Source of the DNA: Eukaryota sp. GEM-RC1
Lineage: Eukaryota
Assembly (NCBI GenBank): GCA_040285855.1
Contig: JAUFOQ010000017.1
Location: forward strand, 1,302,001-1,366,000
Length of the DNA: 64,000 nucleotides
Direction: 5' to 3'
This document shows positions 13,865 through 57,788 of the stretch, piece by piece (position 1 is the first letter of the stretch; every line of letters starts with the position of its first letter). The notes beneath the pieces were generated by a model. The model worked only from the letters and a program-made list of their open reading frames with translations. It searched no databases and had not been told where the DNA came from. The position numbers and the translations under genes were made by a program.

Positions 13865-15735
13865 CTTTTTATGGAACAAAAACACTAAAATAGACACAAA
13901 TACTAGAACTCAATATCATAAAAGCAACAATCATTGCCATTAAAACTCACATCAGCTTTTTCTTCATAAAATATACTGAAGCTAATAGAGCTTTCGAAAT
14001 CATGATAGGAATTGTTTTAAATATTGTAAAACAAATATGATTCAACCAAAATTTGAAATCAAATTTCTTGTTCATTCTTTTTGACCACTTTCTCAAAATC
14101 AGAGAGAAAACAAAGAGCATCTCTACCAAGTCGACCATAAATTGAAATTGCAAAAGAACATAATTTGTACTCAACATGTCTAATATGTTTGAGAGCAGTC
14201 AGTGGTTCATCATATTTGTTTCTCTTGTACTGTTCTGAAGAATTCAGTGGAGAAACTTCATTTTTAGCATCCTTGAATGCACTTTTTTGCAAACATCCAC
14301 AGTAATCACATCAACAACGGTTAGTTCATCATTAACTGATGGAACTATAACATCAGCTCTTCGTTTACCAAAAGTCTTATCAGAATAACTATTTTTTGAA
14401 TTATTGATTTCCAGTGATCTCAACAGTGGCTCAACGAAAGATTCGATTTTGTAGGACTTACACATTGCATGAATTTGATCTCTAACAGCATCATGAATAC
14501 AAGTTCTATAAGTAATGAAACGATTGCAACTCAAAAGGCGAGAAAAAGTAACTAATTTACCACATTTACATTGAAGATCATTGGGTAAATTAGAGGGCCA
14601 CAAGAAACATCGAAGTCTGAATGTTGTAGTCCATTGATGATCATTCAACAACAAACCATAGATCTGAGGAATTTGGTTAATCAAAGCAACTGAAGAACTG
14701 TCCTTTAAATCGATTAAAAATTTGCAAAAGCTGGATTTTTTTCTTTGGCCGAGCCAAGTCGAATTTTAAAATCCAGACATTCAAAATGTTTTAAAAGGTG
14801 TTTTTGGAGTTTCTTAAGAGCAAATTTTAACGAGGTGACACATCGTTCTGGTATTTCACAAATATCTGCTGGAAACAAGTTTGCCAGAGGTCAGGTGAAA
14901 TTAGTGACAATTCTGATCTCAAATTTACCAAGAAAAAACTACTTGTCGAAACAAGAAGATTTTCTTGACTTGGGTACCGTCTACAGAAGTCAAAGACAAA
15001 ATTCTTACCACCACCAATGAAAGCAGATTTGGTCCACCATTTAGACGAAGTAAAACCAATACCACCAAGATGAGGATCTGAGAAGATGTGATTGTTCAAA
15101 GCAGCAGGATCCACTGATAACAAAAATGCAAGAAAGTCAGTACGAATTTTGTTAAAGCTTCTACAGAAGTTATAAATAAGGACAGGGGGGAGAGATCGAA
15201 GCAGATGGGTAACTTTTCCTGAATAACAAATTTTTAGCATAAAGAATTTGAGATGTTTTTCCAATTGTAGTTCCTTAATTTGATCTAATTCTTTTCGCAT
15301 TGAATCCAAATATACATTCAGATCTTTAACAATGTTGTCATGTGAACCAAGATAACAACCTAGAAATCTAAAGCTTGAAGATAAATAGTTCACAAAGGGA
15401 ACCTCTAAAGAATTAACAATTAAAGTTACAGGTACCTTGGCAATCAAAAAACATTTTTGCACATTTAATTGAAGTCCAATAGCATCGTACAAATCAGCAG
15501 CCTGATTCGCAATAATACGAAGAGTTGACATAGGAGCAATAAAAGAAATGTCATCCATATAAGCTACGATTTCTAAGTCGGCATGTTCTTCTTTGAGTTT
15601 TTTCAGGATTGGATGAATAGCCAAACAAAAAAAGAAGGGACCAAGAGGATCTCCTTGTTTAACACCAGAAACAGAATTAAGAACAAATGAATTAAAAACT
15701 AAGTCATAAGAGTGACCATAAAAACAATGAAAAAC
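13865..15735 (-). mobile_element. 5'-truncated RLE-type (CRE-like) non-LTR retrotransposon: RT, zinc knuckle and RLE, frameshifted
   Basis: GVKQGDPLGPFFF and AYMDDI RT motifs, FLGCYLG, LGGIGF thumb, CxC..SC..HDAVRD, RRADVIVP..DVITVD..KRNKY. Confidence 0.92.
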
Positions 15736-16433
15736 GCTGATAATTAGTATGATTAAGCATGTTCAAAAAATCGATTTAGCGACTGAATCGTTTTTGGTCA
15801 AACTGTATAGGTTTTGTCCCAAATCCTTTAAAGATAGCAAACACAATTGATTTTTTCTACAATCTAAGACCAAAAGTCCTAACTGTTTACAGATTGGCCA
15901 CACTGACATTTCAAATTGTGACGAAAATTTTCAGGCAAAATTTATGAACGCAAACGACTGTGATTTAATGGCCAAGTGAAAATAAACAGCACACTTGAGA
16001 GAGTTGAGTAATCAAACATGAATCAGAATCAGAGCTGTTAGATCCATCAAACTAGAAATTTGCAGCAGTCCAACGTAATGATCCCTTCTTTCGAAAATAC
16101 TTGTTAGTTTCCCTTTGTATTTGTTCAGATAGAGTTGAAGATTAGTTAAATCATCGTTTTGGACACATGCTCTGGGGAACATTGCGACCAAACGTAACAA
16201 ATATAATTTGTTCAATGGTTGGTTTAAGTCAAAAGACCTGCGCACGAATAAAGTCCATCACTATGGAGTTGTACTGTTGTAGTAATACCCGACTATTTTG
16301 CATATTTTACAATGTTTTTCATAGTTGTTTGCCCATCGTTATTCAGTCATGAGATTCATGTTCCAACATCGTATTTATACCCTATCCGATAATATTTACA
16401 AATAAAACATGAATTGAGCGTGAAGAGGGAGAG

Positions 16434-16967: not shown

Positions 16968-17776
16968 GTTCGATGTGTGATGAAAGTTTAAATTTATTAG
17001 CTTCATGCACATATGCAGTTCTTTCTTTTAGGACACTGCTAGATCTCTCGTTAACGCTAACTCTAATTCCCATTTCTTAAAGTCTTAGACGGCAATAACT
17101 TCCAAGTTGATGTCCAACAAGGTGGTAAATTTGCCACCCATGGTGTGTACTTCTCTTTGATTGTGCCAAATATCTTCCATCTGCACAAGACCCAGTTATT
17201 GGTTATATTGTTGCTCATCCTGAAAGTTTTAAAGTAGGGACATCAGAATTTGCTGCTTTTCCCTTCTTCGGATCCGAAAGCCACACAAAGAATAACTGAC
17301 CTGGTATTCCCATCAATTCTCCCATGTGATCGTGTGACTTTAGCTGAAAAACACGTGGAGCCGGAACCGTATGTCTTCTGATGGTAAATGAACGGGATTT
17401 GGTCATCTTCATCTTGGGTCAATGTCAGAACTCATTGGAACATGATTTTGGTTGAGGTGGCTTAGGCTGTCTATGGGGTACTTTGGATCAAAGCTGATGA
17501 ATGTGAGCATCAGGGTTTTTGTGCAATATTTTAAAATTTGAAATCAAAGAAGTTGTATAATAGTAAACATCCCCAAGATGTTTTGAAGTGATACAAGCCA
17601 ATGACAATGAGGACGTCGAAAGATATTTTCATTAGATAAATACACATATATATTTGACAGACCGTTAAAGGCACATGTTTGCTAAATAAACAACTTCACT
17701 GATACACTGATATTAGTGACTATCTGATAAGTATTGAAGTTATTGCAATCAATAAGAAAATACAGCTAACCATTTA

Positions 17777-18405
17777 TCGTAGGTGTCCCAATACAAACAA
17801 CTTTATATCTTATTCAAGCAGACACATTTGCTTGCTTGTATTGGGACCTTGCTTGTATTGGGACCCTAGTGTACGATAAAGTGACTATACCTTTGTTTTC
17901 AATATATTACAGGACCACACCCTATTTTGTATTTGTAATGTCAAATGCACATTGTATTGTCACGATTGCAAGATCTTACCAGTTGATTATAACAATACAT
18001 AAATGTGCCACAACGTTTAATAACAGTATTTTAATTTGTTCTACAAATACACAACACTTGTCTGTATAGGAGCAAAGTTCTATTGACAGTGATTCTATTG
18101 CCTATAATTTCATAAATTGAATTTCGATATGCCCTTTTGTCCTTCTGATTTTTAAAATCTCAAACAATACAATAGCACCATCGAGTTCTTCGGGCAAAAA
18201 TACGCAACAATAGTAGGCACCCAAGTGGACACTATGAAGTTCGTCCATAGCTCCATGTGTTGTAAATTCGTTTTAAAACACTTTGTATTGAAGTATAACT
18301 TGGCCAACATCCAGTGTATAGAGAATAATACAAACAAACACTTTTACTTGCTTGTATTGGGGCCTTGTTTGTATTGGAACCTTGCTTGTATTGGGACAAC
18401 TACGA
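17777..18405. mobile_element. Tc1/mariner-type MITE
   Basis: TIRs tcgtaggtgtcccaatacaaaca / tgcttgtattgggacaactacga (2 mismatches), each flanked by TA; internal cttgtattgg(g)acc repeats near both ends. Confidence 0.75.
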
Positions 18406-19571
18406 TATTCTACTGTATTAATTCTTTAAAGCAACTCAAATGATCCCTTTGGATCATTAAATTTGCCTTCATTCTGGTAAGTCATCGTGAGGACCAAACA
18501 AATTCTCAAACTCTGGATTAACAGAAGTGAATAGTTGATTAATTGAATCTAAACTTAGTTTTTTGGTGATGACGAATCCTGAATCTTCAATCAATATTTA
18601 ATTTCAATTTACGGCTGAACAACTTTATCACAACAACTGACAAAATCGATACTACACCAGTATTTTTTGACTGCAGTACTCAAAAGATATTAAATGATCT
18701 ACAATTACTCTTGAATCACTCACAATTGGTCTACCAGAACTATCTCATCTTCTAGTTTACGATTCAAATACTTTCGAAAATTATATAACAGTACAATGAA
18801 AAAAATTGCACGTTGAAGAGTATCATTAAAATTGTACATTGATCACGTCATACTGGTCAAAATTCATACATGAACAATTATGATCACACATCACAATTGT
18901 GATCACAATAATTCGACCATTTCTACACTTTGTGATCACAGTGTGATTTGTGAAGTACAACTATGGTTGAAAGTAATCCGTGAGGATCGAGTGAAAGCAC
19001 TTCATCAGCACTTGTTTTATGTTGATTTGGGATTGTTCTTGAGGAAAAGAATGAAGTCGTCAAGAGAGGAGGATTTAGAGATGATTTGTTTGGGAGGGAG
19101 AGATTGTGATGATTGGTTGAGTGAATGAGAGGGATTGATAGCAGGGATTTTGCGTGGGGGTATAGCAGAAGAGCTTTTCATCTAGAATGAGAAAAAAACG
19201 AAAGAGCATACGGAAGATAAGCGACCATAACGTGTAGAAGATGCTAGAGAACGACCAACAGTAGAAGAAGACTGAAATTGTAAGCGCTGAATCAAGTCAG
19301 ATTCAGATGATTCAGACGCCATATATATAGTAGTTTAAGAACGGACAATTTGGGGATGAAGATTTTTTCATAAAGTGAATTCTTTTGATGCATTGAGTTC
19401 TGATATGGAAGTTGTCAGTTCAGGCGTTCCTTTGTTCTACCTTTGTTGCATGGTTTGTTTACTCACTTTTTGTCATTCAAACACGATCACGTGTTTAAGG
19501 ATATAATATCATAATCATATATATAATTTTATATACTCAGCTATACATGTACTTAAAATTAAATAAAGTAA

Positions 19572-20171
19572 TTAAAGTTTATAATTCCTACGTTTTTTCT
19601 TTACTTGGCTGGCCTTTTTCCCCAATTTTCTTTGGGGCTCTGGCAGTTTCATCTGCTGTTTTTGCCTCCGTTGGAAAATTTGTGTTCTCAACCAAGCAGC
19701 CACCGCATCTGGATTATCAAGCGGATCCAGTTCTGGCGGCATGTTCAGCAACTTCAATTTTGCATCACATTTTTTTACAAGATCATAATAATCCATGATT
19801 GCAAACACCTCAGCTTTGTTGTCAATGGGGTGAAGTTCTGGTGGGATGAGATCACGATGGTCATCAAGGGGATTAGAAATCTCACTAGCTAGACGGTCAT
19901 GTTCACGTTGCAGAACATTGGCTCGAATTCTGAGTGATGATAACTGAGAGTGTACATTGCGAGCTACTTCTCCAAGTTCTTGGTATTCCAAGCCTAATTG
20001 AATTGCTTTAACAGCGTCCTGCTGCAGAGGCCAAGTGACTTTATTGATTTGGTTTAGAAGTTGAAGGAATTCAGGAGAAGATGAATCCGGAAGATTTCCT
20101 GATGGATCGCTCACATTAGAAAGAAGTTCTATAAGTTTGTCGTATTCAGATTCTAAGGACTCGAATGACAT
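19572..20171 (-). CDS. Hypothetical coiled-coil protein (weak resemblance to THOC5 N-terminus)
   Basis: 199-aa ATG-initiated ORF with host-like composition and a basic C-terminus. The family assignment is weak. Confidence 0.6.
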   Translation of the reverse strand: MSFESLESEYDKLIELLSNVSDPSGNLPDSSSPEFLQLLNQINKVTWPLQQDAVKAIQLGLEYQELGEVARNVHSQLSSLRIRANVLQREHDRLASEISNPLDDHRDLIPPELHPIDNKAEVFAIMDYYDLVKKCDAKLKLLNMPPELDPLDNPDAVAAWLRTQIFQRRQKQQMKLPEPQRKLGKKASQVKKKRRNYKL

Positions 20172-20248: not shown

Positions 20249-20825
20249 CTTTCACCTTTCTATCCCCCAATAGCCATAAGGCTATTAAGAGCATACAAAC
20301 AGGATTGAGTTACTCGCTGTATGTTCTTTTGTCTTTTCTTCCTCTTTCTTTCACCTTTCTATCCCCCAATAGCCATAAGGCTATTAAGAGCATACAAACA
20401 GGATTGAGTTACTCGCTGTATGTTCTTTTGTCTTTTCTTCCTCTTTCTTTCACCTTTCTATCCCCCAATAGCCATAAGGCTATTAAGAGCATACAAACAG
20501 GATTGAGTTACTCGCTGTATGTTCTTTTGTCTTTTCTTCCTCTTTCTTTCACCTTTCTATCCCCCAATAGCCATAAGGCTATTAAGAGCATACAAACAGG
20601 ATTGAGTTACTCGCTGTATGTTCTTTTGTCTTTTCTTCCTCTTTCTTTCACCTTTCTATCCCCCAATAGCCATAAGGCTATTAAGAGCGTACAAACAGGA
20701 TTGAGTTACTCGCTGTATGTTCTTTTGTCTTTTCTTCCTCTTTCTTTCACCTTTCTATCCCCCAATAGCCATAAGGCTATTAAGAGCATACAAACAGGAT
20801 TGAGTTACTCGCTGTATGTTCTTTT
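20249..20825 (+). repeat. 99-bp tandem array (~5.8 copies) of a structured RNA-like motif
   Basis: Units start at 20249, 20348, 20447, 20546, 20645 and 20744. Each has a pyrimidine tract, hairpin aatagcc-ataa-ggctatt, and stem aagagcataca/tgtatgttctt enclosing aacaggattgagttactcgc. Confidence 0.95.
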
Positions 20826-20832
20826 CAAGATT

Positions 20833-20874
20833 GATCTTACGCTTTGTGGAGACATTGAATCTAATCGAGGTCCA
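20833..20874 (+). other. 2A (StopGo) peptide, degenerate
   Basis: DLTLCGDIESNRGP; one substitution (CCA>CGA) away from the D(V/I)ExNPGP consensus. Confidence 0.8.
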
Positions 20875-23756
20875 CGGAACAAGACAAAAAGAAGAATCCG
20901 ACCCAACCAGAAAGCGGGATACCATGCATTTGTATCCATCGACAAGGAAGAACCATACTATTGGATCAAGTATGATGAACCGTTACACTTCCAGTCTCAA
21001 TGGCTTGGGATTTTACAAACTACCACAGCCAGATGTAACACCCATGAAGAAGCTGTACAGTTTGCAAAACAAACTATCAAGACAATGACTGAACACGATC
21101 CTGAAGATCCTGAATTAGAAAGATCCCCACCAGACGACCAGCTGTCTCTGAGTAATTGCTACACTGTTCTCGCCACTGGTATTGATCCTCTTCCCAAATC
21201 AGATAGGTTCATTCAAAGACAGGTTGTTCCATTTTGGTCTGAAGATGAAGAGCAACAATTTTCTTCGTCAACTCAAAAAGAACTACTATTTTTGTTTAAT
21301 TTGAAAGATAAAGTCGAGCCTAATACTTCATCGTTTCTTTTTGGTAAGAAATTTTTCAGAAAAAAACCTCAGACGACAAATCAAACGTCCCAGATCCAAC
21401 GACCTAGAAAAACTCCGGTCAGTAGTCTTTTGTACCACTAATGTTCATGTGGTGGAGTTCCAAAAAACAAGCAATCGAAGATACAGAATCAGCTGAAGAC
21501 AAAGAAATAGCTCAAGATGATTCTAGATTCAAGAATGCCAGATGAAATGAAAATTAATTTCAGAGCAAATTTGAATTTACAAACCAAATATTCGGCTGAC
21601 TGGATTGATTTAATTCTGGACGAAGTAACATCTTCATGCTGTCTCGGATTCAAAAATTTCAGCAAACAAGATCTCTTGATGGTTTATTCTTTACAACAAT
21701 CAGTCGAACAAGAAGTGGGATTTGTGACCAATATTCGAATATTATTAGCTGATAGAACGAAGAATCCCACCAGTAGGCCAAATATTAATGGTTGTAAAAC
21801 ATATTTGAATAGAGGTATTTCTAAGGATCTACCAATGTGTGAAGTCAAAGTTCATCAGGCTTTTCAAGAATTTTTGTCTTATGTTCGACAATGTGAGCAT
21901 GTTGGTGAATCAGATATTTTTATGATTGGATCTCTGGCTGACGTGATGGCTGCAAGTCTCAATGTTCATTTTGCAATAGTCAGTAAATATCATCGACTAT
22001 CAAAGACAACTCCCTGGTCAAAGATGTCTGTAATTACCCAAGACCCTATTTGCCCACTTACTGTACTGTTTGCAGTCAAAATCAGTTCTGGTAGTCACTT
22101 TTTGCGCCAAATTTCTGCCATGGTGGATTTAGAAATTCCTTTACGTGTTCAATACCAATTAGGAATTATTCCTAGAGCACCACAACTACCAAGTTGTTTA
22201 AGTTTTAAAACTGATTCAGAACTCTGTCAAAATTTAAATGACTCTCAAAAAAAGACAATTGAAGAAATTGGAAAATTGCATGTAACCTCACCTGGTCTAT
22301 ATGTCATTCATGGAGCACCTGGTACAGGGAAAACAACGACAATTGTCAAATTGATTATGTCTTTTTGTCTAACAAATGCAAGGTTTGGGTAGCTGCTCCA
22401 TCGAATAATGCAGTTGACGTAATATTAGCCAAGCTAGTTGATGAACAGTCAGTTGATGAACAAAAATTGATGCGAATAAGTTCTCAATTACATCCTTTAC
22501 CAGAAGTTCAACCGTTCTTGTTAAGTACAAAGTTAGAACAAAAACAAGCAAAAGAAGAAGCGAAAAAACAAGATGAACAAGATGCTCAAGATTTATTAGA
22601 TCAACAAGCTGTCAGACTTCCTCCACTTAAACAACCAAGAAGGAATATTAAACATGGTCAGCCACATACCACTACACCTGCTGCTCAAGATGAGGAAGAA
22701 GAAAAGGATGATCTTTCGTGGATTTCTGAAGAATATGATGTTCTCTTCACAACATTAGCAGGAGCGAGCAGTTACAGAAATCAAGGTATTTTTAAACCGC
22801 AACTATTAATTATTGATGAGGCCTGCCAGTCAACTGAGCCTGAACTAGTGGCTCCATTACGAATTTGTAATGAATTTACATCCATTGTAATTGTTGGAGA
22901 TCACAAACAATTACCCCCTGTAGTATTCAGTCAAAACTCAGGGTTGTCCAAGTCTTTGATGGAAAGATTGATTGATCAATCTGATTTGACACATCACTTT
23001 GATAGAGAACGCTACACACTACTGAATCCACAATATCGTCAATTCTCAGAATTGTGGGCATTTTCTAATTCAATGTTTTACAGTGATCAAATTGACATTG
23101 TCGAACCAATCACTGGTGAACAATTGACATGTGCCTAAAGACATTTTGTAAATACATGGGGGTCAATTCAAGATTATTCTGAAGAATTGGCAGGTAGTTT
23201 ATTCAACAAACACGAAGCCATTGCTGTTATTAAAGGAGTTTGTGATTTTTTGAAGGATCACAAAGATGCATTGGAAAAAGTTCTCAAGCGTTCATTTAGT
23301 GTGGCAGTGTTGACACCTTACATGGCACAGGTTGATCAACTCAGACAATTGTTTGACTCTATTGAACCACCTTTAGACAATGTACAAATATCAACAACTG
23401 ACGCATTTCAGGGAAAAGAAGTAGATTTTGTATTTGTCAGTACAGTGAGATCCTATCAAGAAGGCAACATTACTCAAAGTCTAGGTTTTTTGACAGATGA
23501 GCGAAGAATGAATGTTATGCTGACAAGAAGCAGGTTTAGTAATTTTATATATGGGCATGAAAAACTTTTACGAACAAATCTGCTTTGGGAGAGTTTAGTG
23601 GATTACTATTCAGCTTCTACTAACGATTACGAATCTGAATTAGACCAAATTCAACGTCGTCGGCAGACTGCACATGCATCTCAAGTATCAGATGAGATTG
23701 TTGATGTCAATGCTGAAGGTTTAGGGAAGTGTTCCCCAAATTTGGGGAAAATGTAG
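20872..23756 (+). pseudogene. Frameshifted Upf1/DNA2/NAM7-like SF1 helicase (~950 aa reconstructed); possible N-terminal RNase H1-N/Cauli_VI-like domain
   Basis: LNDSQ (Q motif), GAPGTGKT, AAPSNNAVD, IIDEACQ, VGDHKQLPP, SLMERL, QYR, LTPYMAQV, TDAFQGKE, RRMNVMLTRSR across ORFs 21517-22392, 22365-23138 and 23187-23756. YHAFV...CNTHEEAVQF follows the 2A. Confidence 0.88.
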
Positions 23757-23973: not shown

Positions 23974-24309
23974 AACAAAATCAACATCTATGTTTTGAAA
24001 ATGTAGCAGTAGTTCTTATGTTTTGTTTTATTTATATGAATGTCATTGCGGTGCTCAACAAAAGTAAATGTAAAGATTTTCAACTATAACTCAGTTCAAA
24101 TGAGAAGAGTTTTGACAGAGTGCATATGATGGTGGAGTTAGCTGTAGTGGTTCGTAACACTGGGAAGAAGCTAAATAAACACAGTGAAAGATCACGATTG
24201 AAAGGATCTTCACCTTTTAAGATCATAGGGAGGTGTGCTCATGAAGAGAAGACCAGTACAACATATGATGAAGATGCCATAATGTCAAGTTGTCAGTGTC
24301 AACATCAGC

Positions 24310-24317
24310 TATAAATA
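24310..24317 (+). promoter_or_regulatory. Candidate TATA box for the Fanzor-polyprotein unit
   Basis: tataaata about 50 nt upstream of the first structured motif copy; weak evidence in AT-rich DNA. Confidence 0.3.
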
Positions 24318-24361
24318 GTGGAAATCTTTTTGACCTGTATCATTTTTGTTCCCTTTGTCGC

Positions 24362-24505
24362 TTCCAAACACTGCAAAGTGTTTCGGGTGATAGTAACAGG
24401 ATTAAGTTACTCGCACTATCACCTTTTTCTTCTTATTTGATGCTTTCCAAACACCACAAGGTGTTTCGGGTGATAGTAACAGGATTAAGTTACTCGCACT
24501 ATCAC
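24362..24505 (+). promoter_or_regulatory. Two tandem copies (83-bp period) of the structured RNA-like motif
   Basis: Hairpins aaacact-gcaa-agtgttt and aaacacc-acaa-ggtgttt; stem gtgatagt/actatcac enclosing aacaggattaagttactcgc. Confidence 0.75.
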
Positions 24506-24556
24506 TCGTCATTTCTCAATAGTCATTTGAACCAACCGTCATCACAGTTTGTTCGT

Positions 24557-24598
24557 GATTTAACCACGGATGGAGACATAGAGTCAAACCCTGGTCCT
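24557..24598 (+). other. 2A (StopGo) peptide, intact consensus
   Basis: DLTTDGDIESNPGP matches D(V/I)ExNPG/P. Confidence 0.93.
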
Positions 24599-25230
24599 TT
24601 TGTCACTGAGGAAGAAATCACCACATTGAAACCCTCCGTATGGCTCGATGATTCTGTTGTTGACTTTTATGGTGAGTACATCACCGAGAATAGTGAGTTA
24701 TGCCAGTTTTTCCGTATCGGGAATCTTCATGCTGCAGTGAGTTATGGCAATTTTGACACATTAGCTCTTGAATTTCTAAATGTTCAGAATTCAATGCGAG
24801 AGACTGGGAAAAGGTTTTTATTTATTCCAATAAACGATGGTGTCTTTCGTGATACAGCAACTCATTGGACTCTACTTGTTTGTGACATTGATAGTACGTC
24901 ATTTTTTTCACTTGATCCAATGTACACTGACAGTTCAACTCAACTTTCATTTGACGTTTTAACTCAAAATGATCAAGTTGTAAGTACATTACAGGAATAT
25001 TTGCGTCATTTTGGAAATTTTTCAAATTTAGGAAAGCTCCCAGTTATTAAACATCAAACTCCCAACGACTGTGGACCATATATCTTAATGTATATGCAAC
25101 GATTTGTTCATTTGGCATCAACATCAGACAATTTCCAGGAAATTTTGTCTCAAGTCCAAGGTTATGTCGATTATGATGCTTTTAACATGAGAAAACAAGT
25201 TCTAAATCTGATAGCAACCACGCATCCTAT
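24596..25230 (+). pseudogene. Ulp1/SENP-like C48 cysteine protease domain 1 of the polyprotein
   Basis: WLDDSVVDFY, FLFIPIND, THWTLL (His), SLDPM (Asp), QTPNDCGPYI (Cys). Confidence 0.88.
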
Positions 25231-25571
25231 TCCTTTTGCTATACTTGCTGTAAGTATTGTACATGAGTACTTTTCAAACAACATTCAAGCACATGTTCAA
25301 GAACACAGTGCCATAGTTCATTCTTCACCTGGTACTTCTGAAATAGCCGAACATCCAACAGCAATTTTATCTCCTGATGAAACTCGACAAGTGCCATTGA
25401 CTATACCCAATCAACTTATGGACTCAAATCTTACAAGGAAAACTCGTCAATCTAGAAAATATCCTCCAAAAAAGAAGAAGTTTTCTCAAAAATATCAAAT
25501 TATACAACATCAACATCGTGGAATTCTAACACAATCTCGTCCTAGACCACTTTTACTAAGATCTGATTAAA

Positions 25572-26210
25572 TTGACACACTGGAAACCCAATGTACTGCT
25601 TCATGATTCTGTCATTGACTTTTTTGGTCAGTACATTGCTCAAAAGAGTAATCGATGTGAATTCTTTGAAGTAGCGAACATTCAAGATGCAATCAATCTT
25701 TCACAATATAACATAATGTTTGAACAATTTAGAGAAGTTCAATTATCAATGGAAAAGTCCAGTAAAAGACACACTAAAAAGTGTAAGAAACGTTTCTTGT
25801 TTATTCCAATAAATGACGGTCTCTTTGGTACAACAGCCACTCACTGGTCACTGTTAATCTGTGATATTGAAAACAAACAGTACTTCTCTATTGACTCAAT
25901 GTGTACAGAAGATCAACAATCTCAGTTTTCTAACACTTTATCACGTATTGACAATATCATTTCACAATTACAGCAATTCCTGTTTGATATGGCAAATTTC
26001 AGCTATATAGCTAGAGTACCAGTTCAACAAGTCCAAACTCTTAATGACTGTGGTCCATTTATTCTAATGTATATGAATAAATTTGTCGAGTGTGAATCAA
26101 CATCAACAAATCTTTTCGAAATTCTGTCTAAAGTCTCTAATTGTGTTGTTTATAATGCCTTAGAAATGAGAAAACAAATATTGTCTCAAATCGTTACTAC
26201 TCACCCTGAT
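25572..26210 (+). pseudogene. Ulp1/SENP-like C48 cysteine protease domain 2 (internal duplication)
   Basis: LHDSVIDFF, FLFIPIND, THWSLL, SIDSM, QTLNDCGPFI; colinear paralogue of domain 1. Confidence 0.88.
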
Positions 26211-26599
26211 GAAGATCACCCTGATGAATACCGACAATATGTATGTACTCATGCCCAAGGTATTTTAAATGAGTTTTATTCTGATGAGATTGAATCACCT
26301 GTTAATCAACCTGTACAGTGTCAATCTGAAAGTTTAACTCCTGAAACAATGGTAGATGATAGTAGTTACAAGGAAACGGTATCAAAGCTCACTTATCAAA
26401 ACTTTCTCAAAAGTTTACCTGGCAATTTGTCTAATCGGAAAAGAAGCGTCTTTTGAAGTTAAAAATGATTGAACAAGCGCTGGAAGAAGCTGAAGATTTA
26501 TTTCAAGAAAGTTATCATAACTTTAGTCGTCCAGAGTTGACAGATCTTCCAGAAATACATTTACCAACTCCAAAAATAAATGTTGCTGCTTGTGAGAAA

Positions 26600-26755
26600 C
26601 CTGATACAACAGAAACAGCAGAAACAATTGAGTCATCTGAAACCACTGAAACAACAGAAGCAACAGAAACAATTGAGTCATCTGAAACCACTGAAACAAC
26701 AGAAGCAACAGAAGCAATTGAATCATCTGACACAGCAGAAACAACAGCAGCAACA
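26600..26755 (+). repeat. Thr/Glu-rich tandem linker repeat
   Basis: gaaacaattgagtcatctgaaaccactgaaacaacagaagcaaca repeated; encodes (ETIESSETTETTEAT)n. Confidence 0.85.
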
Positions 26756-26904
26756 GGTAATAGAAAGACAACAGTTGCCAAAAGGAAAACCACCAAACCA
26801 AAAGCAAGTGGAGTATCAAATGCGACAAAGAGTTTGAAACCTCCTAAAAAGCCAATTATTGAGTTTCTGAAACATTCCCAATTACCAAATAACTCTAATC
26901 ATTG

Positions 26905-27640
26905 TTCAATATTGTCTTTTGATATTGAAACTAGAGAAATTGATCAAATTCCTGCAGAAACACTTACAGAGTAGTTGGATGATCAAAGAAGGAACGAGAA
27001 TGAATCTCTCAAAATGAACAGTGACGCAGAAAAAGAAGTGTGGATTCAAAACCAACAAGTTTTTATGATTTCTGGAGTGTTTGATCATTTTATAAAAGAT
27101 CAATTTTACCTTCAAGACAATTTTGTTGCAACTTTAGAGTTGACTCATGAATCTGATGTTGAACTGCCACCTGATTGTAGAAACCTTCGATTTTTTGAAA
27201 ACGAAAAACAGTTACTAGAGTTTTTTGTCAACTATTTGAATGATAAAAATCCCTCAGTTTTAACTGGATTTAACATAACTGATTTCGATAATGTTATTTT
27301 AGGCAACAGGATTGTTACACTTGGAGTCGACTTTCCAGAACCAATGCTAGATGAAACAACAAAATCTCATTTATCATCTCTATGGCAAAATGTTTGTTCT
27401 GAATGGGCTGGTAGAATTGTCTGTGATTCATACGTTTATGCTAAGCAATTTATTGTTTCCAAAATGTTCAAAGTCTTTAAGATCATTAAGTTGGTTTTTA
27501 TTAAACGAATCTAAAGGACGTCTTCATGACGAATTTCACCACTTATTGCCTATTGATTGTGTTGTTGAAAGACCTCAAGAAGTTGTGAACTATTGCTTCA
27601 AAGATAGTGTACTAGCATTGAAGTTGTTTTTATTATTTCA
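26905..27640 (+). pseudogene. PolB-type DEDDy 3'-5' exonuclease domain of the polyprotein
   Basis: ExoI LSFDIET, FENEKQLLEFF, ExoII LTGFNITDFD, DSYVYAK, SLRSLS, ExoIII NYCFKDS; in-frame TAG at 26972-26974 and one frameshift. No polymerase domain follows. Confidence 0.85.
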
Positions 27641-27649
27641 ATCAAATAA

Positions 27650-29775
27650 AATCGTTCGTCCAACTTTTGTAACACATAAGACTACTCTAAAGTCTATTGT
27701 CAAACATTTTGGATTAACGTTATTACTCGATTATTATGCTCAATTGGTTCACAAACTTAGAATGCATACTTCCTATTTTTTGAAGTTGTTTTTATTACAC
27801 ATGGATAAGATTGGTGAAAAATTACCTTTAATTACAAGGAAAGAAGTAGAACATATTCAAACTCTGTTAAGAAACATCTCTGCTGAACATCATGAGATTG
27901 AATTATGTAATCAAGGACGACCTCCTACATTTAATGAACACTTGAAAAACTTTGTTTCAGAAGAATACAAACAAGTGATGCTCAACAATGGAGGAATTCC
28001 ACTCTTCCAGCTGCTCATTCCTCACGGCTTATGGCAATGGTTGGTGAAACTATTGAATCGAACTTGGACACAAACATTAAAATGCGATATGCTCAATACA
28101 TTGACAAATTTATTAATGTTTATTTTCAAAAGACTGATCAAGAAGAAACAATGTCAAAAAAAGAACAGTCTGTTTTTCGTTGGAGACTAAGACAAGTTAA
28201 AAATGTCTTTCTTGAAGGTAACAGAAATGACATTCCAAAAACCCCTGCAGAAATAAAACAATTTATTCAAAGACGTAATACAGAAATTCTTCAAGACGAC
28301 AGTAATGGAAGTTTGAACATTGCAGGTAAAATTAAACTTCTATGGGCAACTAACGACTATGTTGAAGGATTGTTTAGAGATAAATATTTTATTGATGTTC
28401 TCTTCCCACCATCAATTGATGTTCAAAATGCTAATGGTGTTTATAAAAAGAAAGTCGTTAAATCTCTACTAAAATCAGTTCGTGAACATCCCCAGTCCTT
28501 TATTAAATCTGCGATTCAAATAAATAACTATCTTGAAAGTGAAGGAGCAAGTGCTTACAATGTAATTCCTATTGTTCGTCACGTCACACCAGGTTTCTTT
28601 GAAATAGACACACAAGGTCTTTGGGGAATATTACGTTCCACTTTGTCAACAAAACAAGTGAATGTCAAGAAGAAAATGTCTGAGTGGAACACAAAAGTTG
28701 AAATTGAACACATGTCTCCTGTTGAACAAAAATCAATTCTGGTCCTACTTTTTCAACTTTAATCGTCCATTTATAAAGAAAGGTTATAAGTTTAACAATA
28801 CCATTAAAACTGATGGTTTCTCTGCCTGTGTTGAACTTACCAGAGAGGACTGTGTGGGAATGTCCTTTAAACCAGACAGTGCAAAGTTCTCCAGTAAAGA
28901 AGAATATGTTCAAGACTATGATATTGAAGAGTTTTCATTGAAAACAAAAGTGTTTATTGACCCTGGAAAACAGATTTACTCTATTTTTGTTCAGAGAAAG
29001 TAAATAGGCCATTTCCTGAACAAAAAGCCCGTGAAATGAGAAACAAAGAATACGAGTGGCGGAGATTGACAGAGACAGAATGGTCCAGATGGTCAAGGGT
29101 CCATCAAAAGTTTAGAAGGGGAAAGAAAAAAGAATTCATTCTCCGAGATGGAAAGACAGTTGAAGAAGAAGAGTCAACATTGTCCAAAGAAAATTCGAAA
29201 TCCACTCTTTATGACACATTCTATGACTATGTGAGTTCCAAACTAACAGTTATTGAATCAACATTTGATTACTACTGTTTGATGATATGGCGCATTCAAA
29301 AATGCAAAGATACGTCCATATTCAAAAAACAGAAAGTAAGTTGTTGAAAAATATGACTGCAAAAGGATGGAATAAAAATGACTGTGTATTGATGTTTGGT
29401 GACAATGGTAATAAGAGGCAGAACCTAAAACACCTCCGATCAAGTAGAGGTGTGGGTTGGAGAAACTTCTTTAAGAGAAATGGTTTTAACATCGTTCTTG
29501 TAGACGAGAGTTACACGTCTTCAAAGTGTCCTACTTGTTGGAAGCCAGTTAAAGTGTTCAAAGAAATCAGTAATCCAAAACCATGGAAAAGAGAGAAGAA
29601 ACCTCTGGTAAAGTGTCACGCTTTGTTGAGATGTAAGTCCCAAGAATGTAGAGAAGAATGTCATGGTAGCGCCAAGGTTTGGAATCGTAACAAGTTGGCA
29701 TGTATCAACATCAAAACCATTGTGGAGCATCATTTGGAGCGGGGTCTAGGAGTTAGACCCAGTTATTTGTCATAG
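27650..29775 (+). pseudogene. Fanzor (eukaryotic TnpB-like, Fanzor1-type) RNA-guided nuclease domain, frameshifted
   Basis: KTTLKSIVK, FLKLFLL, EIDTQGL, IKTDGFSACV, RuvC-I FIDPG (D at 28959), FGDNG, RuvC-II VDESYTSSKCPTC (E at 29506), zinc finger HALLRC..EC, RuvC-III WNRN (normally NRD; 29689) ..ACINI. Confidence 0.88.
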
Positions 29776-29945
29776 TCATAGTCATAGCCTTTATTTACTA
29801 CAGTGAATCTGTAGCATTATTGAATCTTCATACATTAAAGCCTCAGTACTTCCAACCTTTTCAAGAACTGATGTAGCAAAAGGAATGAGGATTCACATTG
29901 TAGTAAATGATTTACATTATAAGGCATAATTCTACCTCTCTGGAT
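29776..29945 (+). ncRNA. Putative Fanzor omegaRNA (scaffold ~29787-29925, followed by flank-derived guide)
   Basis: Nested stems directly after the Fanzor stop: gcctt/aaggc; atttactacagtgaatc (29793-29809) / gattcac-at-tgtagtaaat (29890-29908); inner cctca/tgagg and cctttt/aaaagg. Confidence 0.65.
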
Positions 29946-29955
29946 TAGACCAGTG

Positions 29956-32253
29956 ATGTCCAAAATCGACAACGTTTCCTCAAATCAATGTCTTGATGAC
30001 TGCAGTTCCTCTTTATCTACCCTGTCGTCTTGTTCTTCCTCTGTGGGGACGATCCTTGATTCCTCTTCAGTTTCTTCCTGTGTGACAGACACATCTTCTG
30101 GGTCGATTCATTTTCAGTCTTCTCTACTACTATTGATCAATACCCACTTGCATTACGATCTTCGTTTTCCCTCTCAGTTGATGGAGTGGATTCATCAGTA
30201 TTCAAAAGAAATTGGTTATGTTAGCCGTCGCTTCTTTGAATTGTACTTGTCGTCAGTCAAAGTGGTTCTTGAAACAAATGCTATTGAAGTCCGTTCCAGT
30301 CACCTCCCCCTCCTTCTTTCGTTTGCTTCTTTCTTTTCAGCAAATGTACAATCTGTTTTGTTAGACACCCACCAGTATGAACTTTGCGAATCACTCATTC
30401 TTAATCATAATACAATTATTTCTGGTGTCACAATGGTGCTTAATCATGATTTAGATTATACATCTGACTCATTTTTCAAGTTTTGTGATGGATTGTTCGA
30501 TTCTTCTTCTACCATGTCCCTCCCTAGTCTTAAACGTTTAAAAATCATTAATAATGGATCCGGTTTGTTGAATGGTATTGTTTCTGGACTAATAAGTAAT
30601 AATACTTTGCTAGAATTGTCTGTTTCTGAAGTTTCCACGATGTATGAAATTTGGACCCTTGAAAAGATCTTTTCCTCAAACAAAACACTCAAAATAGTTA
30701 CTCTAGCTGATTTGTGGGGTTTAGACATTATGTCATCTTTTTATATGTCCATTTTTAATAGTTCGAGTATTAGAGTCCTTACTGTGTCAGCTACATGTCT
30801 TGATTTTGATGTATGTAATGCTCTGAAAACCAATTTGGTACTGAAAGAACTCACTGTTATTTGTAATTACCTGAAAGAAGAAGCTAAAGGTCTCTCGGAG
30901 GTGATCAAAGGGAACTCATGTTTGAAAAAACTAGAGCTAAGGGATTATAACTATGATTTAACATCAATTATTAGGTCCTTTGAAACAAATTCTTCTTTAT
31001 CAGAATTGGTAATTTCCAAATGTGAGTCATCGCATCATGTAAGTTTTACTGACATGGAGGTTCAGTCGTTAGAAGAAATGGTGCAAAAGAATACTGGTTT
31101 ACTTGTTTTAGGTATTAGTACTCAATGTTTCAATTCTTTTCAGCTTAAAAATGTACTTTTAGCAACGGAACATAATCAAATACTTAAGAAAGTGATCCTT
31201 GGTTTTTCTAATTTTTTCTTAGACCCTTGCTCTGATTTATGCTGTTTAATTGCAGTTTATGAATCAATGGTTATTAAACCACTGTCTTGTCATGTTGATG
31301 TTGATCCTCACTTTGTTGACGTTGAAAATAGTGTGTTTTGTTTTTCACCAAAACGATGCACTCAAATTACAGACGAAGAAGTCTCATCTCTTAAATATTT
31401 TGTGAAGAGTTTTTGCATCAAAGAGCTTACTCTCAGTGGTTGTAGTTTTACCGATGAAGCGATTACTGCTTTGTGTGATTTAATCAAGGATACTGAGTCA
31501 TTGACCTCTATTGACTTAAGTTCTCTCACTGTTGTGAAGCGAGATTCTCATCATGACTCTGATCACGATAACTCTGTTGTTAACAACTCCTTTTCTTGCA
31601 CTGAATATTCAGATGATGAAAGATCTTCCACTCAATTCTTTCTTCCCGATTGGTCTGACAAGGAACTTTCTGATGATCATTTTTGCAAAATAGTTAAGGC
31701 ACTGCAGTTCAATTCTGGTTTAAATAATGTTGATCTTAGTAATAGTATTAGTGGTTTCAATACTCTTTTGACTGTTTTTGAACTAATCTCATTGAGCAAA
31801 TTACCACCCACTATTGATGTTTCCCCCCATTATATATGTAGTGAAGATGGTGTGCTTGACTTTTCTCCCAAAGGTCGTTCCAAAATAACTTGCCAGGAAA
31901 TCTCGTACATGCGGTCTCTTATGGATTGTTTTAGTATTGAGTCGCTTGTCCTTTGTGGTTGTAGCATTTTTGACGAAACTTTTTCTCATTTGTGTGATTT
32001 AATCAAAGGCAATAATTCTTTGACTCTTATTGACCTGAAATCCTGTTGTTTTGATGATGATACGTTTAGTTATGATCCATTGGAAAGCATTTTCGAAAAA
32101 TATATGGATTCTGAGACTGTCGTGGCATTAGTAAATGCACTGGAAGACAATTACACTATTTCTTTGATACTGCTTCACAGTGATTCCATCGATTCTGAAA
32201 CTGTTGAGTACGTGAATGAAGTCCGTGAGGATAGGATAATATGTTATTTATGA
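29956..32253 (+). CDS. RNI-like leucine-rich repeat protein
   Basis: Long intact ORF with repeated NxxLxxLxL / LTSIDLS / LTLSGCSFTDE motifs and a Ser-rich N-terminus. Confidence 0.82.
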   Translation: MSKIDNVSSNQCLDDCSSSLSTLSSCSSSVGTILDSSSVSSCVTDTSSGSIHFQSSLLLLINTHLHYDLRFPSQLMEWIHQYSKEIGYVSRRFFELYLSSVKVVLETNAIEVRSSHLPLLLSFASFFSANVQSVLLDTHQYELCESLILNHNTIISGVTMVLNHDLDYTSDSFFKFCDGLFDSSSTMSLPSLKRLKIINNGSGLLNGIVSGLISNNTLLELSVSEVSTMYEIWTLEKIFSSNKTLKIVTLADLWGLDIMSSFYMSIFNSSSIRVLTVSATCLDFDVCNALKTNLVLKELTVICNYLKEEAKGLSEVIKGNSCLKKLELRDYNYDLTSIIRSFETNSSLSELVISKCESSHHVSFTDMEVQSLEEMVQKNTGLLVLGISTQCFNSFQLKNVLLATEHNQILKKVILGFSNFFLDPCSDLCCLIAVYESMVIKPLSCHVDVDPHFVDVENSVFCFSPKRCTQITDEEVSSLKYFVKSFCIKELTLSGCSFTDEAITALCDLIKDTESLTSIDLSSLTVVKRDSHHDSDHDNSVVNNSFSCTEYSDDERSSTQFFLPDWSDKELSDDHFCKIVKALQFNSGLNNVDLSNSISGFNTLLTVFELISLSKLPPTIDVSPHYICSEDGVLDFSPKGRSKITCQEISYMRSLMDCFSIESLVLCGCSIFDETFSHLCDLIKGNNSLTLIDLKSCCFDDDTFSYDPLESIFEKYMDSETVVALVNALEDNYTISLILLHSDSIDSETVEYVNEVREDRIICYL

Positions 32254-35609: not shown

Positions 35610-36130
35610 ATTGTACCTGTCAACATTCAATTGGTTAATTAAGTGGCAGTACTTTGTATTTTTCCTTTTTCAGCCACAAGAGCAGAAAAATCATCATCAA
35701 ATTTTTGGAAATTGATCTTGAATAACAAGGATCAACAAGAGGGAAATCCATGATAATTTCCTGACAAGACAACCAAGGACCAATCAAATCACCTCGACTT
35801 CTAACAACTTTTGGCTGATCAGAAAGATTAGCAAGTAAGGGTTTAATTTTCCCATGAAAACCATTAGCTTTAAACATATCCAAACATGTATCCCGGATAC
35901 TGTTGTGGATTATTGATCGAAAATGAATAAATTGAAGACAGTTAACTAAATGATGAAAATTTGAAGCCTTTGATCGACCACAAAGACATGAAGAAAGTTT
36001 CAAAAGACCTGAAGGCCATAAACCAAACCTAAGTCTCATGTTTATAAGCCATTCATGATCCTTAAGATTAAAACAAAATCTTCTTGGCAAATGAGAAACA
36101 AATGAAGACGCAGAGCTTGAAGAAATACCA
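35610..36130 (-). mobile_element. 3' fragment of RLE-type LINE (third subfamily)
   Basis: MRLRFGL..CLCG..HHLVNC..HNSIRD..RSRGDLI; near-identical to 57180-57670. Confidence 0.85.
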
Positions 36131-36789
36131 TTTAAAATTAGTCTATCATCAGTATATTGTTTCAATGTAATCAACAAACTGTGTTACAAAACCAGGAAGA
36201 GGCTATTCATGTATTGGGTTGACTATGGACGAGAACATACATATGGATTATTCCAAGACCATACCAGATATATATTTTCTCTGCAATACAAGTTATGGGT
36301 GGTGTCAGAAATTATTATGAAGTGACACGCTGAACAGGAAGGAAAATTTTAGTGTGTGTTGTTCAGTTCCTATTTTTCCTAATATACAACCATTCAAAGA
36401 AACTTAGACGCAAAATTTGACTCTATCAGTGCTATGCACTTGTGTGGAGATTGATAACTGCTTGCTGATGTTGTTTCTGACTAATCACTCGTTGGGTGAG
36501 GGTTATGAACGGAACCGCTGTTCTCATGTTTCTTGATTAATACCTCAATAACGATTGGAACAACTCTATCTTAACAATGGTTCTTTTTTTTTCCTTTAGA
36601 GGTTTCATCTGACATGTCATTTACTACGTCTTCTTTGCCGTTTACTGAGTCTGAATTTTTTTGCGAATGATTAAACCATCAGTCTGGAAGAATTTCATAC
36701 CTGTAATTCAACCATAAATAACTCTAAAGTGGTTGACTCCCAACTTAATTTTTGTGTAATTGGGTACTGTTTATAAATGTCAAGACCAA

Positions 36790-38966: not shown

Positions 38967-39915
38967 TGATTAGATTGTTCAAGAGAAATATGCTTTCACT
39001 TTGAACCTCTTCACATACGCTCTCTTCTTCTGCGCTACCTCCTCCATGAGATAACGTGAACCTCATCAAACATAACATGAAGTATCTTTGCTAGTGTTCA
39101 AGTCTAACACCGAAGACTTCTTCTCCGATTACCATCTCTACTTGGTCTCGCGATGCTGCGATGTCTCGCGACCGCTCTTGCATCCCAACAGGACCTTCGA
39201 TCTTGCTTCTTGAAGGTTTGCCCACTTCCTCTCGTTATTCCGAACGTGTTACAGTTTTCTGTGGAGCTCCTTGCAGCCGGTTGCCTTCTCGAAGTCTAGA
39301 ACTCCTCTCCCCGCCTCACTGTCCGATCTAGCTAAGTCGAGAATCGTTTTCTCGTAGTTTCTATTCCAACTCTCTCTTTGTCAAAGTACCTACTCTTCAT
39401 TGTTGTTGTTGCTATTTGATCTTCTCTTCTCCAGCTAAAACATGTGTGTGGGTGAAAGACATTGGTTGATCCTCACCAGCAATCTTCAAAAGAATCAAGC
39501 AGCTATTGAAGTCTCTATTCCAGAGATTTTTGTATCCTTCTCAACTCACTAAACCCCTACAATTGACCTTCTTCTGTCTCTTTCTACCACATCAGTTTGT
39601 GGTCATTTTCTCTCCAACTAGACCAATCAATCAGCTCAAAAATTTGATTGAACTTCGGTTGAACTCTTCTTCTACTGGAAGTTTGAATTCTTGACCTTGA
39701 GGAAGTTTTACGTGTCATTCTTCTTCTTGGTGGTCAATCTCCGTGTAGTTGACTTTTCTTTTGTAATGTTTTAAATTTGTTAATGGTTCTGGTCAGTCTT
39801 GAAAGCAATTTTCATTACTCAGAACCCCTCCTCCCGTTTTATCACGTCACCATTCAGTTTTGATTCTTAAACGCATTACATAGTGTTCAATTGTGGCATT
39901 ATTTTCAAATTTAAA
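38905..39915 (-). repeat. Dispersed repeat family copy overlapping the CCDC42-like 5' end
   Basis: Colinear with 44225-45245; inverted copies at 48520-49220 and 53505-54260. Confidence 0.85.
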
Positions 39916-44224: not shown

Positions 44225-45245
44225 ATGTAGTAAGTTGTGACAATAAGTTTCTTCATATCCAGTAGTTGTAATGAAGGATGAAGGCATTTGATTAGATCCC
44301 AAAATTGACGTCTCATTGCTTTACTGGTGAACCTCTTCACATACGCTCTTCTTCCGTGCTACCTCCTCCACGAGATAACGTGATCCGCATCAAATGTTAC
44401 ATGAAATATCTTTGCTAGTGTTCAAGTCTAACACCGAAGACTTCTTCGCCGATTGCTATTTCTGTTTGGTCTCGCGACCGTTCTTGTACATCAGCAGAAC
44501 CTTCGAAGTTGCTTCTTGAAGGTTTGCCCACTTCATCTCGTTATTCCCAACGTGTTACAGCTTTCTGTGGAGATCCTTGTGTATGTAGATGGCAGGCGGT
44601 TGCCTTCTTGATTTCCAGAACTCCTCTCCCCGCCTCACTTTACGATCTTCGTTGCTCTGTCGAGAATCGTTTTCTCGGAGCTCTACCTTCTGTCTTAGTT
44701 TTATCTCTCTCTCCTCCTCTGAGAGAGGTAACTGAATGCCTACTCTTCATTGTCTTTGATCTTTGATCTTCCCTTCTCCAGCTAAAACACGCGTGTGGAT
44801 GAACTACATTGGTCGATCCTCACCAGCAAGATTACACTCAACAATCTTTAGAAGAATCAAGCAGCTGTTGAAGTCTCGATTCCAGAGTTTCTGAACTCAT
44901 CATCACTTGACTTCATCTGCCTGTTCTTACCACATTAGTTTGTGGTCATTTTCCATCCAACTAGACCAATCAATCAGCTCAAAAAGTTGATTGAACTTCT
45001 GTTGAACTATATTCCTCTTCTTTTGGAAGTCTGAATCCTCAAAGTTAGGCTTCCGTGTGTCGTTTAGCCAATCTGCCTGTAGTTGATTCTTCTTTTGTAA
45101 TATTTCAAATTTGTTAATGGTTCTGGTCAGTCTTGAAAGCAATTTTCAACACCAAGAATGCTTGTTCTATCCCGTAACCATTCAATTTTGATTCTTAAAC
45201 GCATTATATAGTGCTAAATTGTGCTATTAATTTGAAATTTAATAT
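44225..45245 (-). repeat. Dispersed repeat family copy carrying a duplicate of the CCDC42-like 5' end
   Basis: Colinear with 38905-39915, including gaaggatgaaggcat (start-codon region). Confidence 0.85.
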
Positions 45246-56138: not shown

Positions 56139-56146
56139 ATCAGAAC

Positions 56147-56733: not shown

Positions 56734-56759
56734 ATTGTACCTGTCAACATTCAATTGGT

Positions 56760-57165
56760 ACTGAATTCTTCAGAACAATACAAGAGAAACAAATATGATG
56801 AACCACTGACTGCTCTCAAACATATTAGATATGTTGAGTACAAATTATGTCCTTTTGCAATTTCAATTTATGGTCGACTTGGTAGAGATGCTCTTTGTTT
56901 TCTCTTTGTTTTCTCTCTGATTTTGAGAAATGGTTAAAAAAGATTGAACAAGAAATTTGATTTCAAATTTTGGTTGAATCGTATTGTTTTTACAATATTT
57001 AAAACAATTCCTATCATGATTTCAAAAGCTCTATTAGCTCTCAGTGTTTTTTATGAAGAAAAAGCGGATGTGAGTTTTAATGGCAATGATTGTTGCTTTA
57101 ATGATATTGAGTTCTAGTATTTGTGTTTATTCTAGTGTTTTTATTCCATAAAAGACTAAAATCAA
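56760..57165 (+). mobile_element. 5'-truncated LINE with 14-bp TSD
   Basis: Matches the 13865-14245 family; TSD aacattcaattggt at 56746-56759 and 57166-57179. Confidence 0.88.
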
Positions 57166-57750: not shown

Positions 57751-57788
57751 AAACAAACTTCTTATTTGATGAAAATCATATTATATCA

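Follow-up and report, generated by a model that had tools for sequence, protein, structure and literature searches.

A broken Skoliomonas locus from a gene family that joins a 2A leader, two C48 proteases and a PolB-type exonuclease to a Fanzor1 nuclease

The stretch of DNA considered here, referred to as the window, comprises 64,000 nt of contig JAUFOQ010000017.1 of Eukaryota sp. GEM-RC1, and all positions are numbered within it. Six-frame translation and Pfam scans of the window revealed a unit on the + strand that runs from a repeated RNA motif and a 2A leader through two C48 proteases, a linker and a family-B DNA polymerase (PolB)-type 3'-5' exonuclease to a Fanzor1 nuclease (Table 1). GEM-RC1 and TZLM3-RCL belong to Skoliomonas, a genus of free-living metamonads (PMC11316075), and the locus is a broken copy of a gene family that encodes the full chain and is multicopy in these anaerobic protists. 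The original prediction, made from the letters of the window, had named the 2A motif, two proteases with H/D/C triads, a threonine/glutamate (T/E) linker, the ExoI, ExoII and ExoIII motifs and those of a Fanzor; every one of them was found where it had been placed, and all the domains follow one another in the order claimed. The span given to the unit, 24290..29945, proved too generous at its 3' end, since the coding part of the Fanzor unit stops at 29775 and positions 29776-29945 are non-coding and strongly folding.

Table 1. Features of the Fanzor unit and of the unit that precedes it, in window coordinates.
Positions	Strand	Feature	Evidence
20249..20825	+	5.8 units of 99 bp; same RNA motif as at 24362..24527 with different, compensating stems	repeat and folding analysis
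20851..23756	+	broken open reading frame: degenerate 2A (DIESNRGP), about 450 residues without family, Upf1-like superfamily 1 (SF1) helicase (P-loop 22312, DEACQ 22815)	
24362..24527	+	two 83-bp units, each with a structured RNA motif (7-bp hairpin and 10-11-bp stem closing a conserved 20-nt loop)	folding z -3.3, -5.3
24440..24598	+	leader from in-frame ATG, ending in 2A motif DGDIESNPGP (motif 24575-24598)	motif reading, translation
24608..25200	+	C48 (Ulp1/SENP8-like) protease domain 1, triad intact	Pfam E 2.9e-9
25571..26200	+	C48 protease domain 2, triad intact; stop 25568 and frameshift near 25584 at its front	Pfam E 1.8e-12
26201..26900	+	linker: conserved helical stretch, T/E repeat (26601-26756), Lys-rich segment; frameshift near 26440	
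26900..27641	+	family-B polymerase-type 3'-5' exonuclease, without polymerase domain; stop 26972, frameshift near 27462	DNA_pol_B_exo1 E 2.6e-13
27642..29775	+	Fanzor1 (WED/REC, RuvC D-E-N triad, C4 zinc finger); four frameshifts	homology, fold comparison
29776..29957	+	candidate omega-RNA scaffold: long stem 29790-29910, then short hairpins; right end of element undefined	folding z -4.5 for 121 nt

The window copy is interrupted by two in-frame stops (25568 and 26972) and by seven frameshifts (near 25584, 26440, 27462, 28007, 28735, 28966 and 29300). Introns at these breaks were ruled out, as the pieces of the window abut in paralogues that read through them. Nor are the stops explained by a variant genetic code, given that table 1 leaves host genes of 646 and 776 aa open and that sense codons stand at the positions concerned in paralogues. 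A-runs of at least 4 nt coincide with five of the seven frameshifts, compared with 26% for random positions, and two of the seven are seen again where other GEM-RC1 models (P0013 and P0005) end. The named Skoliomonas assemblies combine Nanopore reads with Illumina correction (PMC11316075), so that errors in the assembly of repeats may account for some of the breaks. Both stops, being substitutions, suggest real decay.

All nine breaks are read through in other gene models, either of GEM-RC1 (about 85-96% identical to the window) or of TZLM3-RCL, the last frameshift (29300) by the latter only. Two models of TZLM3-RCL, P0002 (RCL1_003749, 1846 aa) and P0007 (RCL1_005395, 1905 aa), hold the full 2A-protease-protease-exonuclease-Fanzor1 chain, and in four others (P0003, P0009, P0010 and P0040) the exonuclease is joined to a complete Fanzor. 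The original prediction of a single polyprotein, as opposed to separate or nested genes, is thus upheld, since the full chain exists in two models and every break is bridged elsewhere. The junction between exonuclease and Fanzor is present in 17 of the 40 proteins collected (11 from TZLM3-RCL, five from GEM-RC1 and one from TZLM1-RC), the remaining 23 being fragments or unrelated. The number of proteases varies: there are two in the window, P0002 and P0007, one in P0017, and none in the P0009 and P0040 models. The annotations that these proteins already bear in the protein database are PF03104 and PF26935. Taken as a whole, the architecture of 2A, two C48 proteases, PolB-type exonuclease and Fanzor1 is almost certainly real; it is conserved and apparently undescribed, and it presents Fanzor1 in a new multi-enzyme form.

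Outside Skoliomonas, no such fusion was found in the protein searches made. A junction-peptide search among longer proteins gave five matches from 557 candidates, all from GEM-RC1 or TZLM3-RCL. A HMMER search of 1.84 billion representatives gave ten, of which seven were Skoliomonas models or fragments, two were unnamed Fanzor-like proteins matched in the Fanzor part only, and one (P0020) was apparently spurious. A profile search of proteins of 1494-4265 aa returned only P0002 and P0040 among 3019 candidates, which is weak evidence of absence elsewhere. No related locus was seen in viral contigs scanned with P0010, with the RuvC alignment and with the RNA motif, or in metagenome contigs scanned twice; a phage collection yielded one weak polymerase match only, and an Atlas search with the exonuclease-Fanzor part yielded no usable match.

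In the window, the ExoI (DIE, 26921), ExoII (FD, about 27284) and ExoIII (YCFKD, 27591) motifs of the exonuclease lie within a match to PF03104 (DNA_pol_B_exo1, E 2.6e-13), and in a model of P0010 the domain superposes on the proofreading domains of Pol II and Pol alpha (Z 16.9, root-mean-square deviation (rmsd) 2.8-2.9 A, 171-185 aligned residues). No palm, fingers or thumb domain of a polymerase follows it: in 17 models, the Fanzor starts about 10 residues past ExoIII. The original prediction had put exonuclease and Fanzor in one frame over 27351-28190. ExoIII and the first strand of the Fanzor (THKTTL, 27672) do share a single frame in the DNA of the window itself, but only about 27465-28006 of that frame is coding. 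The four catalytic acids (D, E, D, D) are invariant in 14 of 14 exonuclease domains from six groups, and the spacing to the Fanzor is fixed across the same six groups; as identity between the groups is only 17-50%, the fusion is to be regarded, on these comparisons, as old and maintained. Trees of the 14 exonucleases and of 16 REC segments resolved the subfamilies but, given their long branches, neither the deeper order nor the donor of the exonuclease. Modules appear to have been exchanged between subfamilies, since P0005, about 65% identical to the window over the whole Fanzor part, is by eye nearly identical in the RuvC half and diverged in REC, and since P0040 and P0017 share a 58-residue stretch at 91%.

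The C-terminal part is a Fanzor, as had been claimed, and more precisely a Fanzor1: the best match of P0002 in the PDB (phmmer) is SpuFz1 (E 7e-30), followed by PpFz1 (E 4.8e-24), and the first seven ranks of a Foldseek search with the P0010 model are all Fanzor1s. The Fanzor part of this model compares with SpuFz1 at Z 18.2, but with an rmsd of 15.5 A over 365 residues. The motifs of the window copy, whose Fanzor pieces are 38-60% identical to P0002, are KTDG (28806), DPG (28959), DESYTSSKCPTC (29503), the second Cys pair CKSQEC (29632) and WNRN (29680). DPG, with the RuvC-I D, and DESYTSSKCPTC together with the second Cys pair, which give the relocated RuvC-II E followed by the TS-xx-C4 zinc finger, are the same in P0002, P0007 and P0040. 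Both the window and those complete relatives that were examined have a D-E-N RuvC triad, with RN instead of the RD of the motif of Bao and Jurka 2013. A nuclease-dead Fanzor on account of this D>N change alone was ruled out, because GtFz1, which has the same N in RuvC-III, is active; moreover, the D606N change raised the activity of SpuFz1 (PMC11423790). RNA-guided, TAM-dependent (target-adjacent motif) cleavage of double-stranded DNA is predicted for the Skoliomonas proteins.

The Fanzor is followed directly, past its stop codon, by 121 nt (29790-29910) that in this single copy fold far better than shuffled sequences (z -4.5, 0 of 200 shuffles) and that have no match in Rfam. Fanzor omega-RNAs occupy the position just 3' of the gene (PMC10432273; 10.1101/2023.08.09.552727), and the folded RNA is a candidate omega-RNA scaffold. 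At the other end of the domain, VTHKTT, just after the exonuclease, aligns with H21, T22 and K25 of the WED strand of SpuFz1, residues that contact the first guide:target pair (PMC10432273).

The two proteases of the window, both above the PF02902 cut-off, have the His-Asp-Cys triad and oxyanion Gln of C48 enzymes, with H/D/C at 24863/about 24914/about 25070 in domain 1 and at 25842/about 25893/about 26049 in domain 2; the three residues are invariant in all five aligned protease rows. The domains are tandem duplicates (66% nt identity over 401 nt). Their best match in the PDB is SENP8, a NEDD8 protease (E 1.4e-7 for P0002 and 0.02 for domain 2 of the window), so that the role originally proposed, de-SUMO/de-NEDD, needs rewording: the predicted substrate is of the NEDD8/SUMO type, and deNEDDylation is at least as likely as deSUMOylation. 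In front of the proteases, the 2A motif conforms in the window (DIESNPGP) to the 2A (StopGo) consensus D(V/I)ExNPGP; it reads DVEANPGP in P0002 and P0007, and DIHPNPGP in P0017. Behind them, the T/E linker repeat, with a 9-bp/45-bp period, is indeed present at 26601-26756 but is not conserved, as the RCL copies have an unrelated K/S-rich linker.

The RNA motif ahead of the leader consists of a hairpin with an RYAA loop and a stem closing a 20-nt loop, and it recurs in the 99-bp repeats that lie ahead of a second 2A unit upstream. The loop is identical at 19 of 20 positions between the two units. In the stems, which differ, both bases are changed in 10 of the 20 pairs and pairing is kept throughout the alignment, in what are essentially two independent sequences; the + strand is favoured by the G-U pairs. 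When the motif was modelled, strong matches were obtained to these eight copies only. Rfam has no family for it and gave chance-level matches only; by eye, it fits neither a hammerhead nor an HDV-like (hepatitis delta virus), twister or pistol ribozyme. The upstream repeats and the Fanzor unit probably belong to the same element. For the upstream helicase unit itself this is plausible, although the locus tags of its paralogues, which are 95-96% identical and lie elsewhere in GEM-RC1, do not adjoin those of the Fanzor unit among the collected models. The unit is broken; its helicase is Upf1-like (AAA_11 6.6e-30, AAA_12 9.9e-30 in Pfam). For the front region of about 450 residues, no long relative was found among 1916 candidates, the Atlas gave no usable match, PHROGs and NCBIfam gave nothing further, and a single-sequence fold reached a pLDDT (predicted local distance difference test) of 29. 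By eye, this region resembles an OTU protease and the hybrid-binding domain of RNase H1, likenesses that no search supported and that were not used.

About 80 bp from the 99-bp repeats starts a divergent open reading frame of 199 aa (19572-20171, - strand), a coiled coil with a basic tail that has a 98% identical paralogue and that may be part of the element. A third 2A motif, DVESNPGP, lies at 40925-40800 (-) and is followed by what appears by eye to be the decayed start of a C48 protease; no RNA motif stands upstream of it, where folding does not exceed that of shuffles (z -0.2). Elsewhere in the window there are a broken hAT-like transposase (DUF659) and many fragments of retroelements without long terminal repeats (non-LTR), at 55300-56764 (+), at 14244-15762, 35635-36183, 49319-50320 and 57230-57775 (-), and at 61895-62551 (+), with an RVT_1 match at 14830-15762. 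There is also an element of about 630 bp (17775-18407) resembling a miniature inverted-repeat transposable element, with 26-nt terminal inverted repeats (TIRs) and internal 17-bp repeats. A further dispersed repeat family, without assignment, occurs in both orientations, 85-99% alike, at 39022-39830, 44346-45160, 48450-49190 and 53443-54195. Finally, a tightly packed, AT-rich block (25-31% GC) at 57747-61862 contains an isochorismatase-family gene, an AAA_33 kinase-like gene and three open reading frames without family, and may be integrated viral DNA.

What could such a chain do? Elements with TnpB, a relative of the Fanzors, are maintained because TnpB cuts vacant sites and thereby triggers recombination (10.1101/2023.11.20.567912), and we propose, tentatively and as something a little short of probable, that the chain is a homing nuclease that trims its own product. 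The Fanzor would cut the empty insertion site 16-21 nt beyond the TAM, if the distances of SpuFz1 apply (16-17 nt on the non-target strand and 20-21 nt on the target strand; PMC10432273). With the TAM marking the insertion point, the TAM-side fragment would end in a 3' tail of 16-17 nt, mismatched to the donor beside the left end of the element. Tethered some 10 residues away from the WED strand at the TAM/R-loop junction, the exonuclease would trim this tail back to the junction, and the trimmed end would serve as the primer from which host repair copies the element into the break. In yeast, Pol delta proofreading can take as many as 40 nt off an invading 3' end (PMC10868807); the captured proofreading domain may take over, in place, a Pol delta-like trimming of the invading end. 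The 2A would free the polyprotein from its leader, and the SENP8-like proteases would remove NEDD8/SUMO-type marks or process the chain. The end-resecting role originally suggested for the exonuclease does not hold, as a 3'-5' enzyme does not perform the 5'-3' resection needed for recombination; because it would shorten 3' ends, it fits tail trimming or deletion instead.

Several points weigh against this proposal or against the chain on which it is built. Bacterial TnpB homes without a fused exonuclease (10.1101/2023.11.20.567912) and host Pol delta can trim, so that the fusion is not required for homing. At the Fanzor locus, no transposase, terminal repeat or target duplication was found, and repeats between the candidate ends, of 8-10 nt, are at chance level, the ends not being fixable from a single copy. 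The mobility of the family is deduced from its copy number, and the activity, expression, TAM and guide of the chain are all predicted. Overall, confidence in the AlphaFold2 model of P0010 is low (mean pLDDT 54, pTM (predicted template modelling score) 0.44, RuvC half mostly below 50), and the placement of the exonuclease relative to the Fanzor is predicted from the sequence junction rather than from this model. The relatives are predicted gene models, which may be spliced over breaks: only two show the complete two-protease chain, P0002 is without two short stretches present in P0007, and P0009 and P0040 start with a DEAH-type helicase in place of the proteases, possibly joined to them by gene prediction. 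The DEAH-type helicase, which echoes the helicase upstream in the window, is by eye active in P0009 and degenerate, with CCHC knuckles, in P0040.

One alternative is that the exonuclease serves to destroy targets, degrading the cut ends to cause deletions by which the element would erase competing elements, viral DNA or its own re-cuttable sites. Its catalytic residues are kept, the window is rich in retroelement fragments, with the hAT-like transposase and the virus-like AT-rich block besides, and engineered exonuclease fusions to Cas and IscB raise the size and frequency of deletions (PMC13599430). However, TREX1, TREX2 and T5 fusions all impaired editing by MmeFz2 (PMC12923547), and a guide derived from flanking DNA would be expected to aim at the empty allele rather than at foreign DNA (PMC10432273; Yoon preprint), so this alternative seems unlikely. 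Another possibility is a role in RNA maturation, in which the exonuclease trims the 3' end of a read-through transcript to leave the 15-20-nt guide of the omega-RNA. Fanzor guides do reach about 15-20 nt past the end of the element and need 3' trimming (PMC10432273), and the DEDDy exonucleases of Terminons have been proposed to process the 3' ends of structured RNA or single-stranded DNA (PMC6431247). Against this, the exonuclease would be tethered near the TAM, a long way from where the guide has its 3' end. The domain is, moreover, of the DNA-polymerase-B type by profile and by fold, and exonucleases of this type act on DNA. Other Fanzors also mature their RNA in yeast without an exonuclease (PMC10432273), which leaves this role improbable.

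The cut and the trimming might also provide a 3'-OH at the TAM for a reverse transcriptase (RT) or another enzyme acting in trans, and thus lead to insertion at new sites. The non-LTR elements NeSL and Utopia are known to carry an N-terminal Ulp1-like protease (PMC4640811), both 2A units have structured repeats in front of them, the gene models keep their 3' part and vary at the 5' end, and the window contains RT fragments and the third 2A-protease start at 40925. Yet the unit has no RT, no poly(A) tail or target duplication was seen at the locus, the RNA motif model matched none of the RT fragments of the window, and a guide matching an existing flank does not aim at new sites; such primer formation is improbable. 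An accident or artefact is the last alternative: the Fanzor may have inserted downstream of protease genes and the remnant of a dead polymerase, or distinct genes may have been merged in gene prediction. It could be invoked given that the relatives are all computed models, that the window copy is broken and that two models join a neighbouring helicase. It is nevertheless largely refuted, and very improbable, in that ExoIII and the beginning of the Fanzor share a frame in the DNA of the window, with some 10 codons between them, and the same spacing and invariant catalytic residues occur in six groups that differ at 17-50% identity and come from three isolates.

A wider and more speculative scheme can be drawn, which we consider unlikely to hold in full: Skoliomonas may harbour a new class of transposase-free mobile element, assembled from modular units of repeated structured RNA, 2A and polyprotein, in which the exonuclease-Fanzor cuts, trims exactly to the insertion point and primes copying, deNEDDylase-type proteases and helicases counter host silencing, and the RNA motif is a new ribozyme or translation signal. 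With regard to the role of Fanzors for their eukaryotic elements, a natural, conserved exonuclease fusion with almost no linker predicts sharply how the break should be repaired. The family also extends Fanzors to metamonads and supplies several apparently intact, divergent effectors, in six subfamilies, with the D-E-N triad. No natural fusion of a Fanzor with an exonuclease or a protease was found in the literature searched, which included PMC3627910, PMC10530073, PMC10432273, PMC10691335 and the Yoon preprint, although the supplementary tables of surveys might list such proteins and most subscription papers lay outside the search; no paper was found that treats a Fanzor together with a metamonad. 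The originally supposed lack of a described equivalent stands within these limits.

The chain resembles the Fanzor1s SpuFz1, PpFz1 and GtFz1 (PDB 8gkh, 9cf0 and 9cer; PMC10432273, PMC11423790) in the order WED/REC-RuvC-zinc finger, in DPG, in the relocated E and in a putative structured 3' RNA, and it shares with GtFz1 the N in RuvC-III (PMC11423790). SpuFz1 is, however, a stand-alone protein of 633 aa in a TIR element with TA duplications (PMC3627910), whereas the Skoliomonas chain has some 1,100 residues in front, made up of proteases, linker and exonuclease, and no TIRs were found at the locus. The family is multicopy, like the Fanzor1-bearing transposons (Mariner, Helitron2, IS4, Sola2, MuDR and the unclassified MCi-2 and MCi-5), and, as in MCi-2 and CRe-1,2,3, the Fanzor is at the 3' end behind variable 5' parts (PMC3627910). 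In those elements, it is a separate open reading frame beside a transposase, without an enzyme fusion in the descriptions consulted (PMC3627910), whereas no transposase was found at the Skoliomonas locus.

An N-terminal Ulp1-like protease on the main open reading frame is shared with the non-LTR retrotransposons NeSL and Utopia-1_TSP, but these carry an RT and a restriction-like endonuclease (PMC4640811) where the Skoliomonas unit has the exonuclease-Fanzor. No RT domain was found in the window unit or in Pfam scans of P0002 and P0040, so that the unit does not qualify as a non-LTR element with a restriction-like endonuclease of the NeSL/Utopia kind. With Terminons and with LTR elements that have DEDD 3'-5' exonucleases, it has in common an accessory 3'-5' exonuclease, several co-oriented open reading frames and repeated RNA motifs; those are retroelements, with DEDDy/DnaQ-type enzymes and hammerhead ribozymes (PMC6431247, PMC6338049). 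The Skoliomonas enzyme is instead of the PolB type and forms one chain with an RNA-guided nuclease, and no Rfam family fits the RNA motif. The closest parallel in design is man-made: Cas9-TREX2, IscB-T5E and MmeFz2-TREX/T5 also tether an exonuclease to an RNA-guided cutter (PMC13599430, PMC12923547). Such engineered fusions failed on Fanzor2, where they lowered editing (PMC12923547), whereas the Skoliomonas fusion, which is evolution's counterpart to them, is natural, almost free of linker and conserved.

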